38,787 bases of DNA from Escherichia coli (GTDB taxonomy: Bacteria > Pseudomonadota > Gammaproteobacteria > Enterobacterales > Enterobacteriaceae), in the NCBI RefSeq assembly GCF_003334385.1, contig NZ_QOWN01000040.1, one strand, 5' to 3'. The position numbers and the translations under genes were made by a program. Shown piece after piece: positions 35,377 through 36,951 of this stretch. The notes beneath the pieces are model-generated. The model was not told the origin of the DNA. It was given only the letters and a program-made list of their open reading frames with translations, and made no database searches. Numbering within the stretch: position 1 is the stretch's first letter; each line of letters starts with the position of its first letter.

Positions 35377-35553
35377 ATGAACCTGGTTGATGCATTTGTC
35401 ACTAAAGTGATATCCGGACCGTATGAAGAATACGGAAAATGGTGGGTGGATGTTGAATATATTTCCTGGGGAGTTCCGGGTAAAAGCCGGCTCATGTTTG
35501 ACTCACGGGAACAGGCACAGGAAGTGCAGGAAGGTTTTCGATTTTTAACCTGA
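35377..35553 (+). CDS. 58-aa hypothetical protein
   Basis: MNLVDAFVTKVISGPYEEYGKWWVDVEYISWGVPGKSRLMFDSREQAQEVQEGFRFLT with AAGGTG 6 nt upstream. Its 3' half is duplicated, truncated, at 36139..36243. Confidence 0.5.
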   Translation: MNLVDAFVTKVISGPYEEYGKWWVDVEYISWGVPGKSRLMFDSREQAQEVQEGFRFLT

Positions 35554-35566
35554 GCATATTTTGTTA

Positions 35567-35596
35567 AAGGGCAGAAGGCGGTGACCCTCTGCCCTT
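35567..35596 (-). terminator. 3' stem-loop of the putative toxin-1 mRNA
   Basis: AAGGGCAGA(A)GG-CGGTGA-CC(C)TCTGCCCTT lies 20 nt beyond the toxin stop. It has no strong U-tract and may act as a stabiliser or terminator for the convergent transcripts. Confidence 0.4.
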
Positions 35597-35615
35597 AAGT
35601 ACGTTTCCGGGATTA

Positions 35616-35711
35616 TCAGTCAACCAGTTCCCGGATCAGTTCCAGGATTGCTATCACTGCGTTAGCCACAGCAACAACCGCCCTGAGAACGATGATTAAC
35701 CTGTTAATCAT
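35616..35711 (-). CDS. 31-aa hydrophobic DinQ-like type I toxin candidate (copy 1)
   Basis: MINRLIIVLRAVVAVANAVIAILELIRELVD with GGAGAA 4 nt upstream. It is conserved in copy 2, whereas the upstream part of the 98-aa track ORF is not. It resembles E. coli DinQ (MIDKAIIVLGALIALLELIRFLLQLLN, from memory). Confidence 0.6.
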   Translation of the reverse strand: MINRLIIVLRAVVAVANAVIAILELIRELVD

Positions 35712-35936
35712 CCGCTTCTCCATCAATGGAGAAAGAACACCGTGGTTTGCCCTTACATTGCCTGTCGCCACGTTTTCTATAGTGTCAGTTATAGACAGTT
35801 CTTCTCCGGCCAGAGCACCAAAACCAGCACCACCTGATGTTTTGGCCAGGACTTGCAACCTGTTCATCCCGGTGAACGATATGCCGGAAAGAACGTGCCT
35901 CAAAGCTGACACACCGAGTATATACTTATACTGTGC

Positions 35937-35965
35937 TTGCAGAAATATTATTTCAGCCGTATTAT
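35937..35965 (+). promoter_or_regulatory. sigma70-like promoter for antitoxin sRNA-1
   Basis: TTGCAG, 17 nt, TATTAT. The predicted start at about 35971-35972 coincides with the start of the leader-complementary segment. Confidence 0.45.
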
Positions 35966-35971
35966 TTCATA

Positions 35972-36058
35972 GTCAGTTATAGGCAGTTATCTTCCGGTCA
36001 GGGCTACCAACTTCGATCCGGAATCGCAAAAAAACCGGCCTCACCAGTCGGTTTTTTT
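35972..36058 (+). ncRNA. putative AgrB/IstR-like antisense sRNA-1 (about 87 nt)
   Basis: Its 5' segment 35972..36010 repeats + strand 35784..35821, so it is antisense to the toxin-1 leader (11-nt perfect seed GTCAGTTATAG plus imperfect extension). It ends at the A7-stem-T7 terminator at 36028..36058. Confidence 0.5.
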
Positions 36059-36250
36059 GCGTCTGTACCTCCTCCCCGGACAGCAGTTCTCTCACTCCCG
36101 TTGAATATTTCCTGTTGAATTTTACGAAAATACGGCAAATGGGAGATATCGAATATATTTACTTGGGTGTAGTCGGTAAAAACCAGCTCATGTTTGACTC
36201 ACAGAAACAGGCTCTGGAAGTACAGAAAGTAATCTGTCCGTAGATTATTA

Positions 36251-36280
36251 AAGGGCAGAGGGCGGTGACCCTCTGCCCTT
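36251..36280 (-). terminator. 3' stem-loop of the putative toxin-2 mRNA
   Basis: AAGGGCAGAGGG-CGGTGA-CCCTCTGCCCTT forms a 12-bp perfect stem. Confidence 0.4.
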
Positions 36281-36299
36281 AAGTACGTTTCCGGGATTA

Positions 36300-36395
36300 T
36301 CAGTCAACCAGTTCCCGGATCAGTTCCAGGATTGCTATCACTGCGTTAGCCACAGCAACAACCGCCCTGAGAACGATGATTAACAGGTTAATCAT
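36300..36395 (-). CDS. 31-aa hydrophobic DinQ-like type I toxin candidate (copy 2)
   Basis: MINLLIIVLRAVVAVANAVIAILELIRELVD differs from copy 1 only at residue 4 (R to L). GGAGAA lies 4 nt upstream. Confidence 0.6.
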   Translation of the reverse strand: MINLLIIVLRAVVAVANAVIAILELIRELVD

Positions 36396-36678
36396 CCGTT
36401 TCTCCATCAATGGAGGAAGTCACCGTTGCTTGCTCATACATCGCCTGTCACAACGGCTCTCTGACATTGTTGGATGTAGAGTACATTCCCCCCTGCCAGA
36501 GCACTGAACACAGCACCACCTGTTTGTTCAGCCAGGACTTTAATTCATCCATACACAGATAGAACAGGTTTTAGAAGCAAGGGAGGCACACTGTACAGCG
36601 CCAACACAAAGATTATACAGATGCACACATAAAATTCATTTAAAGAAATGAATATTGACAGGCAATCTGAAGTCAAAC

Positions 36679-36707
36679 TAGACAACAGATGTCTGGTGCC
36701 ATAATAT
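36679..36707 (+). promoter_or_regulatory. sigma70-like promoter for antitoxin sRNA-2
   Basis: TAGACA, 17 nt, TAATAT. The predicted start at about 36714-36715 coincides with the 16-nt leader-complementary seed. Confidence 0.4.
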
Positions 36708-36714
36708 TATGGAT

Positions 36715-36799
36715 GTTGGATGTAGAGTATCTTCCTCCGGTCAGAGCACCAACTCCGCTCCGGAATCACAAAAAACCGGCCTCACCAGTCGGTTTTTTT
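36715..36799 (+). ncRNA. putative AgrB/IstR-like antisense sRNA-2 (about 85 nt)
   Basis: TGTTGGATGTAGAGTA at 36714..36729 is identical to + strand 36468..36483, so it is antisense to the toxin-2 leader. It ends at the A6-stem-T7 terminator at 36770..36799. Confidence 0.5.
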
Positions 36800-36951
36800 G
36801 TACCTGTCTCCCACCACCTTCTGCCGTTCGCTCTTCTCTGTGAAAATGTCCTGTTGAACTCATTCCTGTCCGGTTATTACCGGCGCTGATTCGCATTCAT
36901 GCCACCCGACTTAATCCCGAAATTTATCCATTCATCTATGGAGGAATCCCC

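Follow-up and report, generated by a model that had tools for sequence, protein, structure and literature searches.

Contig NZ_QOWN01000040.1 of the Escherichia coli assembly GCF_003334385.1 carries two tandem modules of the dqlB-agrB family of toxin–antitoxin (TA) systems of type I, in which a small peptide toxin gene faces a divergently transcribed antisense small RNA (sRNA). The stretch of DNA analysed, 38,787 nucleotides (nt) in all, is called the window below. The plasmid is pCT-like and belongs to the IncI complex (IncB/O/K/Z). A thermonuclease gene and trbA enclose the two modules, with module 2 (dqlB-2 and its sRNA) directly upstream of trbA and module 1 (dqlB-1 and its sRNA) next to it. 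A preliminary description, made from the raw sequence, had rightly recognised a DinQ/AgrB-type type I TA system here, with a divergent trans-antisense sRNA acting on a long 5′ untranslated region (5′ UTR). The family models and the alignment to dinQ described below bear out this assignment.

The two toxin open reading frames (ORFs), dqlB-1 and dqlB-2, are offset by 684 bp and differ by one substitution (R4L), and each has GGAGAA 4 nt 5′ of its ATG, all as first described. Both peptides scored far above the cutoff of 35 bits for the NCBIfam model NF041473, "DinQ-like type I toxin DqlB" (61.3 bits for dqlB-1 and 66.2 bits for dqlB-2), with hidden Markov model (HMM) alignments spanning residues 1–31 of 31 and E values of ~1e-17. 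With the DinQ equivalog NF041472 the scores, 18.9 and 19.1 bits, stayed under its cutoff of 30, and a Pfam scan of the two peptides gave no match, HOK_GEF included. NCBI names the exact peptides DqlB, with the R4 form on 44 contigs and L4 forms on 937 (the dqlB-2 peptide) and 999. Codon changes relative to homologues were mostly synonymous (11 synonymous and 2 non-synonymous for dqlB-2 against the IncI1-type locus L002), and judging from these codon differences selection on the 31-residue frame is visible. A perfect 22-nt palindrome, GATGATTAAC-NN-GTTAATCATC, holds the dqlB start codon (35691..35712 and 36375..36396) and would fold as a hairpin across the AUG. Its central dinucleotide is AG in module 1 and CT in module 2 and in all other peptide-matched dqlB loci. 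AG is the reverse complement of CT, as expected of a hairpin-loop inversion or template switch, and the change produces L4R in dqlB-1.

Segments of the two leaders that start 73 nt 5′ of the start codons (35784 and 36468) were found again by a repeat search, without inversion, at 35972 and 36714, where the plus-strand sRNAs begin. The perfect 5′ matches between leader segment and sRNA, 11 nt in module 1 (GTCAGTTATAG) and 16 nt in module 2 (TGTTGGATGTAGAGTA), were re-found at the lengths given in the preliminary description. Both predicted sRNAs are ~88 nt long and matched the full Rfam AgrB model RF02891 (positions 1–84) above its gathering score of 40, the two plus-strand elements having E values of 3.6e-07 and 3e-06. 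Their predicted folds follow the layout of K-12 AgrB, with a largely single-stranded 5′ tail of ~20 nt, a stem-loop 1 and a terminator (z = –4.5 for the fold of sRNA 1). The terminator, an A-run followed by a GC stem and T7, comes ~55 nt past the segment copies and ends at 36060 and 36801. The sigma-70-like plus-strand promoters proposed earlier are present at both sites. That of agrB-2 was returned by a promoter scan; that of agrB-1 was found by reading only, as its –35 matches TTGACA at 3/6 positions and its –10 matches at 5/6, which is under the scan threshold and left it unlisted. With the Rfam OrzO-P model the scores were 30.8 and 27.5 bits, under its gathering score of 60, and the match covered the terminator only (model positions 46–76). 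The AgrB-like terminator hairpins AAAAAACCGGCCUCACCAGUCGGUUUUUUU (36025..36061 and 36768..36801) are near-perfect for the OrzO-P terminator even though the match is sub-threshold (30.8 bits). The zor 5′ UTR is also reported to resemble plasmid dinQ-like leaders (Shore et al. 2024, PMC11264685).

The leaders of the two toxin mRNAs have the four-element layout of dinQ. When aligned with the K-12 dinQ mRNA and five plasmid dqlB loci, both keep the –10, the +1 region, the leader hairpin (SL2), the sRNA target, the hairpin around the Shine–Dalgarno (SD) sequence, the ORF and the 3′ stem-loop. The +1 and –10 positions in Table 1 were taken from alignment to the mapped dinQ +1, and the transcript ends are likewise predicted. 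On these coordinates the 5′ UTRs are 199 nt (mRNA1) and 210 nt (mRNA2) long compared with 194 nt in dinQ, the sRNA target lies 72 nt upstream of the start codon compared with 75 nt in dinQ, and both targets occupy positions comparable to that of dinQ (mRNA nt 88–119, G88–A119). Minimum free energy (MFE) folds of the full-length leaders of both modules contained the long-range duplex between elements 1 and 2 together with a closed SD hairpin (UCUCCAUUGAUGGAGA). In module 1 the SD hairpin was closed in the MFE fold and aligned with the 3:4 hairpin of dinQ (PMC5066626). Elements 1 and 2 are GUUCUUUCCGGC and GCCGGAGAAGAAC in module 1, and CCUCCCUUGC and GCAGGGGGG in module 2. Complementarity between elements 2 and 3, found by reading, involves GGAGAAGAAC with GUUCUUUCUCC in module 1 and GGGGGAA with UUCCUCC in module 2. 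Both modules can thus form the mutually exclusive 1:2, 2:3 and 3:4 pairings plus the SD hairpin that define the dinQ-type leader, and the differences between modules in elements 1, 2 and 3 are, as read from the aligned leaders, compensatory.

Table 1. Positions of features of the tandem dqlB-agrB modules and of associated elements in the window.
Feature	Position	Strand	Description	Basis
dqlB-1 toxin ORF	35616..35711	–	31 aa, MINRLIIVLRAVVAVANAVIAILELIRELVD; rarer R4 variant	ORF list, NF041473
dqlB-2 toxin ORF	36300..36395	–	31 aa, MINLLIIVLRAVVAVANAVIAILELIRELVD; begins MINLLIIVL	NF041473
Predicted dqlB-1 mRNA	35563..35910	–	~348 nt; +1 35910, –10 TATACT 35922..35917	dinQ alignment
dqlB-1 mRNA, element 1	~35895..35883
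dqlB-1 mRNA, 3′ stem-loop	35567..35596			repeat search
Module 1 sRNA target in 5′ UTR	35783..35822	–	mRNA nt 89–128; holds element 2 GCCGGAGAAGAAC
Module 1 SD hairpin	35716..35738	–	element 3 UUCUUUCUCC pairs with element 4; GGAG 35721..35718 inside
Predicted dqlB-2 mRNA	36247..36605	–	~359 nt; +1 36605, –10 TATAAT 36617..36612	dinQ alignment
dqlB-2 mRNA, SD and 3′ stem-loop	36405..36402; ~36251..36280		SD GGAG; stem-loop	MFE fold, repeat search
Module 2 sRNA target in 5′ UTR	36467..36510	–	mRNA nt 96–139; holds element 2 GCAGGGGGGAAU
agrB-like antitoxin sRNA 1	35972..36060	+	class A, seed GUCAGUUAUAG	Rfam RF02891, 47.7 bits
agrB-1 promoter	35937..35965	+	TTGCAG-17-TATTAT; back-to-back with toxin promoter	read by eye
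agrB-like antitoxin sRNA 2	36714..36801	+	class B, seed UGUUGGAUGUAGAGUA	Rfam RF02891, 51.8 bits
agrB-2 promoter	36679..36707	+	TAGACA-17-TAATAT	promoter scan, 9/12 matches
Partial diverged copy of 58-aa ORF	36115..36243	+	carried with repeat unit	repeat, 80% identity
hok/sok (pnd-type) type I TA locus	29632..29938	–	separate from the dqlB modules

No LexA box was found at either toxin promoter, the dinQ box CTGTATGATTATCCAG aligning to AGTATATACTCGGTGT in module 1 and CTGTATAATCTTTGTG in module 2. The only CTG-N10-CAG sites (35834..35849 and 36520..36535) are the conserved leader hairpin. With no LexA box over the –10, toxin expression is probably constitutive rather than SOS-induced, which fits an addiction role. 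SOS control was considered and rejected for these modules: the published "LexA site" of an IncI1 dqlB, ACCTGTTTGTTCAGCCAGGA (PMC12211044), maps to 36518..36537, within the transcribed leader hairpin. That site had been proposed for the IncI1 plasmid pTF2, and its hairpin sits 69–88 nt 3′ of the predicted +1. The CTG...CAG symmetry of the published box is explained by the RNA hairpin and not by LexA binding.

Pairing between each sRNA and its leader was evaluated with RNAduplex, using the 5′ 24–43 nt of the sRNA against the leader because duplexes computed between whole RNAs contained spurious long interior loops. With the sRNA's first 41 nt, cognate duplexes reached –58.3 kcal/mol in module 1 and –59.6 kcal/mol in module 2. 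Dinucleotide shuffles had a mean of ~–28 kcal/mol with a standard deviation of 3.4, so that cognate pairing stood far above chance (z = –8.9). Within the 5′ 24 nt, cognate energies were –32.9 kcal/mol for sRNA1 on mRNA1 and –40.6 kcal/mol for sRNA2 on mRNA2. The same dependence on the adjacent leader held across a set of 15 non-identical modules from IncI, K/Z, HI2, X1, X3, X4, X5 and F plasmids and K-12: 24-nt duplexes averaged –38.9 kcal/mol for cognate and –21.9 kcal/mol for non-cognate pairs, and 0 of 20000 permutations attained the observed value. The sRNA 5′ tails fell into discrete classes, for example A (GUCAGUUAUAG), B (GUUGGAUGUAGAGU) and C (GUUAGUUGAAAAGAGA), each matching the adjacent leader.

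We conclude that the locus very probably consists of two complete tandem dqlB-agrB type I TA (post-segregational killing) modules, each with an antitoxin predicted to be specific for its own mRNA. Family membership, pairing, architecture and mosaic history are direct results; transcription start sites, processing, toxicity, differential RNA stability and in vivo orthogonality we infer, and the following scheme joins the two. Each module would produce from a constitutive sigma-70 promoter a minus-strand mRNA of ~350 nt with a 5′ UTR of ~200 nt. In the primary transcript element 1 would pair with element 2, leaving the SD locked in the 3:4 hairpin and the mRNA translationally inert. By homology with dinQ alone, 5′ processing would free element 2 to pair with element 3 and open the SD, whereupon the hydrophobic 31-residue peptide would be made and would damage the inner membrane. 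An AgrB-like sRNA of ~88 nt would bind through its single-stranded 5′ tail to ~40 nt of the leader, including element 2. As in dinQ, this binding would re-close the SD hairpin and probably create an RNase III substrate, so that plasmid-bearing cells would survive. Once the plasmid is gone, the mRNA would outlast the sRNA and the cell would be killed. The near-identical toxins would be served by different specificity cassettes (leader target, promoters and seed), class A in module 1 and class B in module 2.

Several results weigh against this reading. Partition-function modelling left the SD paired after 5′ truncation in both modules and opened it only marginally in the dinQ control, and the toxin mRNA terminators have no U-run. 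Module 1 looks the weaker of the two, given the poor –35 of its sRNA promoter and a 24-nt cognate energy that falls between those of agrA and agrB on dinQ; its leader was also fitted better by the sRNA of the IncI1-type module L013 (–42.6 kcal/mol) than by its own. Finally, sRNA2 on mRNA1 reached –51.6 kcal/mol over ~41 nt (z = –7.3), so that some cross-repression is possible. Conservation between the classes in the 3′ half of the pairing region (CUUCCUCCGGUCAGAGCACCAA), together with G–U pairs that bridge the seed differences, accounts for this high energy. The two modules might then not be orthogonal at all, with sRNA2, or possibly both sRNAs, repressing both mRNAs and the tandem arrangement just raising dosage. 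We consider this unlikely. The conserved half is buried in stem-loop 1 of the sRNA itself, and when pairing was confined to the 5′ 24 nt, which are accessible, cross pairs had energies of only –16.1 kcal/mol for sRNA1 on mRNA2 and –21.7 kcal/mol for sRNA2 on mRNA1, well short of the cognate values. Over ~41 nt, sRNA1 on mRNA2 was at background (–32.7 kcal/mol, z = –1.4). The K-12 system offers a calibration: functional agrB on dinQ gave –40.6 kcal/mol over 24 nt and –65.5 kcal/mol over 43 nt, and non-functional agrA on dinQ gave –27.8 and –50.0 kcal/mol, yet agrA neither binds nor represses dinQ, in vitro or in vivo (PMC5066626). In the 5′ 24 nt both cross pairs were weaker than agrA–dinQ, and over the longer stretch only sRNA2–mRNA1 came near the agrA value. 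By this calibration, orthogonality of the two pairs is plausibly the likelier state. The earlier proposal that each sRNA matches its own leader therefore stands in part: the seeds differ and the preference for the own leader is evident in the 5′ 24 nt, but over ~41 nt the preference is asymmetric.

The signs of weakness in module 1 raise the further question of whether only one module works, the other, most likely module 1, being a decaying or regulatory element with an sRNA like the non-repressing agrA. Besides the 3/6 match of its sRNA –35, a 24-nt cognate energy of –32.9 compared with –40.6 kcal/mol for agrB–dinQ would be consistent with this, as would the drift of sRNA 1 from its target evident in the better fit of the L013 sRNA, the unusual L4R in dqlB-1 (44 contigs against 937–999 for the L4 peptides) and the loss of the toxin with retention of the sRNA in the relatives L004, pCT and L011. 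Those deletion derivatives, however, dropped toxin 2 and not toxin 1. The ORF, SD hairpin, family-conserved –10 and target of module 1 are all intact, its cognate duplex reached –58.3 kcal/mol over 40 nt, its exact class A cassette is present in 251 PLSDB records at at least 99% identity, and R4 mimics K4 of DinQ. A single working module thus appears quite improbable. Far less credible still is that the real gene is a 98-residue ORF (35616..35912), the plus-strand hairpins being mere terminators of neighbouring genes. This GTG-initiated ORF does exist in copy 1, and older Dql annotations often had longer N-termini (PMC5066626), but we rejected it as the gene: its frame is not kept in copy 2, where it spans 36 residues, and only its last 31 residues resemble DqlB and DinQ. 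Between the copies its upstream part is 46–61% identical, compared with 98% for the 31 codons, and the plus-strand elements match the whole AgrB model (1–84), beyond the terminator. The short peptide is the conserved unit, as the preliminary description had argued.

Returning to two complete modules of different class, we found that their coding and regulatory parts have separate histories. Between the window copies the ORF and 3′ end are 95–98% identical, whereas the target, 5′ leader, promoters and sRNA seed are 23–61% identical. The regulatory half of module 1 is 88–98% identical to that of the IncI1-type L013 module, and the regulatory half of module 2 is 88–100% identical to that of the IncHI2 module L005; the ORFs of these two modules are ~81–82% identical to the window ORFs. 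This pattern of identities points to a recombinational mosaic, in which old specificity classes would have been brought together by recombination or gene conversion and their coding parts homogenised. It speaks against the earlier view that the pair was duplicated and then diversified in place.

Relatives of the locus showed further rearrangements. In the IncK2/Z locus L003 the module nearest trbA combines a class C cassette with an ORF that matches that of window module 2 at 100% identity. L004 and pCT have the L003 arrangement minus a clean 427 bp, with toxin 2 gone and an orphan class C sRNA left, and L011 has one toxin and an orphan class C sRNA. The one-toxin/two-sRNA loci lie at 420..810 in L004, 2290..2682 in L051 (pCT) and 1409..1742 in L011, the second sRNA being without a cognate leader there, an arrangement that mirrors chromosomal dinQ-agrA-agrB. 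This suggests, by analogy, that the orphan sRNAs are orphan antitoxins, possibly with an anti-addiction role. In PLSDB the class A cassette was covered to at least 80% in 807 records and was at least 99% identical in 251; the corresponding numbers for the class B cassette were 322 and 38. Coverage of at least 80% of 35200–37000 was found in 71 records, the best at 99.3% identity and typed IncI1/B/O or IncK2/Z, and these best relatives (NZ_CP147568 and others) are annotated "dqlB (x2)" in RefSeq. No more than 27 loci came from a contig scan with GGAAACGTAMYTAAGGGC; as many were chance matches in unrelated phyla, the scan was not used.

A wider interpretation can be offered tentatively, as a possibility that we do not favour as a whole. 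The block of ~300 bp comprising leader target, promoters and seed would be an exchangeable cassette, of which at least six mutually orthogonal classes would circulate on Enterobacterial plasmids, swapped by recombination between the toxin ORF and the sRNA stem-loop and terminator, both of them conserved. Stacking of classes (A with B here, A with C on IncK2/Z) would guard against anti-addiction by co-resident or rival plasmids supplying a single AgrB class. An anti-addiction role would fall to toxin-deleted derivatives with orphan sRNAs (pCT, L004 and L011), and chromosomal agrA could be counted with them. Lastly, on pCT the orphan sRNA is accompanied by one class A dqlB-agrB module, and dqlB-agrB modules may explain why deletion of pndACB left this IncK plasmid stable (PMC4083329). 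If the classes are orthogonal in vivo, they would be relevant to plasmid–plasmid competition through anti-addiction and would bear on that pnd knockout result, and plasmid curing with antitoxin RNAs would here need two RNAs plus Sok. No description of heterotypic stacking, cassette swapping or orphan antitoxins was found in the literature examined.

The same plasmid carries an intact hok/sok locus away from the dqlB modules. The Hok ORF (29632..29784, minus strand) matched Pfam HOK_GEF at 46.8 bits and sok (29782..29938, minus strand) matched its Rfam model at 125.6 bits, and the window has no other Hok or sok match. The gene order on IncI1-type plasmids is excA, a HEAT-repeat protein (Hha in one), a 58-residue ORF, dqlB, agrB, a hypothetical gene and Hok, followed by trbA where the locus reaches that far (L002). 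The slot directly 5′ of trbA is thus occupied by hok in IncI1 and by dqlB-2 in the window. The preliminary description had a DinQ-type system filling the pnd niche; with hok/sok intact and dqlB and Hok being neighbours on IncI1-type plasmids, this is valid only in the narrow positional sense that module 2 takes the place of IncI1's hok directly upstream of trbA.

The 58-residue ORF (35377..35553, plus strand) is convergent with dqlB-1 and has a bidirectional stem-loop in common with it. Annotated as a hypothetical gene, it is kept beside dqlB on IncI-complex plasmids (L002, L011, L013 and pCT). When the module was duplicated, the 3′ half of this ORF was copied too; the copy has 80% nucleotide identity and remains an open frame of 42 residues; in blastn, 35429–35854 aligned with 36129–36540. 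Family searches with the ORF and its partial copy gave no match, and PADLOC found nothing relevant among the neighbouring genes. A 528-residue protein that adjoins hok (27908..29494, plus strand) combines a sigma-70 region 4 helix-turn-helix with a TnsA-like endonuclease N-terminal domain. Its counterpart on the IncK plasmid pCT is pCT_066, an "unusual putative sigma factor", and this correspondence marks the backbone as pCT-like. A 514-residue ORF (31687..33231, minus strand) resembles sulfatase-fold phosphoethanolamine transferases (Pfam Sulfatase 133.9 bits, weak EptA_B_N). It lies far under all NCBIfam cutoffs, CptA and EptA included, with MCR models at 20–26 bits against cutoffs of at least 1225, and a role in colistin resistance is not implied. 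This ORF is part of a ~2.6-kb insertion that separates hok from the nuclease gene and is shared by only one PLSDB plasmid (NZ_CP147067.1, 97.4% identity).

The core of these findings is already known. Kristiansen et al. (2016, PMC5066626) named the dql (dinQ-like) genes, split them into dqlA and dqlB and found them in Enterobacteriaceae, both chromosomally and on natural plasmids, and matching antisense RNAs were already predicted in T1TAdb. On pOXA-48, DqlB was shown to be toxic and to be neutralised by agrB in a plasmid-stabilising addiction module, with homologues on 83.2% of IncB/O/K/Z and 67.4% of IncI1 plasmids (Baffert et al. 2025, PMC12365149). The dqlB-agrB of the IncX3 plasmid pOXA-484 was likewise shown to be an addiction module in 2025 (PMC12317039), and CRISPR interference data are consistent with these addiction findings. 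The preliminary description knew the system only as chromosomal and SOS-linked, which is corrected by this record and by the RefSeq naming of both ORFs as dqlB. The family is therefore named, validated, surveyed and RefSeq-annotated on near-identical plasmids, and the discovery value of the locus is small. What it adds is comparative: two antitoxin classes in tandem with separate coding and regulatory histories, and relatives in which the slot next to trbA has changed class or in which a toxin has been deleted and its antitoxin sRNA left behind as an orphan.

Compared with the modules of pOXA-48 (IncL) and pOXA-484 (IncX3), those in the window share the NCBIfam DqlB family, a 31-residue peptide of the pattern MINLLI(I/V)VLRAVVAV...LELIR, the leader layout, a divergent AgrB-type sRNA with ~35–40 nt complementary to the 5′ UTR, a plasmid location and a promoter without a LexA box. 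They differ in being two in tandem, one of class A and the other of class B in seed and target. Divergence puts the pOXA-48-type sRNA below the Rfam gathering score (no match in L016 and L018), whereas both window sRNAs exceed it. Toxicity and stabilisation were demonstrated for the pOXA-48 and pOXA-484 modules and are predicted for those of the window.

The K-12 dinQ-agrA-agrB locus has in common with the window the peptide motif MI[DN][KR]xIIVL...LELIR, elements 1–4 in the 5′ UTR, a target ~75 nt before the start codon, the AgrB covariance match and two sRNA paralogues with different 5′ regions. In contrast to DinQ, the window peptides have 31 and not 27 residues, start with ATG and not GTG, and fail the DinQ HMM, and their promoters have no LexA box over the –10. 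Each window sRNA has its own toxin, whereas K-12 agrA has none. The distance from the sRNA promoter to the toxin +1 is 62–110 bp here, compared with ~80 bp (agrA) and 310 bp (agrB) in K-12 (L021 coordinates).

Two further systems invite comparison. Like the window locus, zorO-orzO/zorP-orzP of E. coli O157:H7 consists of tandem near-identical small toxins with divergent trans sRNAs and a long 5′ UTR, and it also has antitoxin-only derivatives (PMC11264685) and an sRNA terminator that resembles those seen here. The OrzO-P match is nevertheless limited to the terminator (30.8 against 60 bits), the toxin family differs, and zor/orz is chromosomal. The hok/sok (pndAC) system of IncI1/R64-type plasmids is, like dqlB-agrB, a plasmid type I post-segregational killing system of the excA–trbA interval, in which mRNA processing precedes translation of a small membrane toxin. 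It differs in that the DqlB peptide is unrelated to its toxin, and in that its antisense RNA, Sok, is cis-overlapping, AgrB being encoded in trans.

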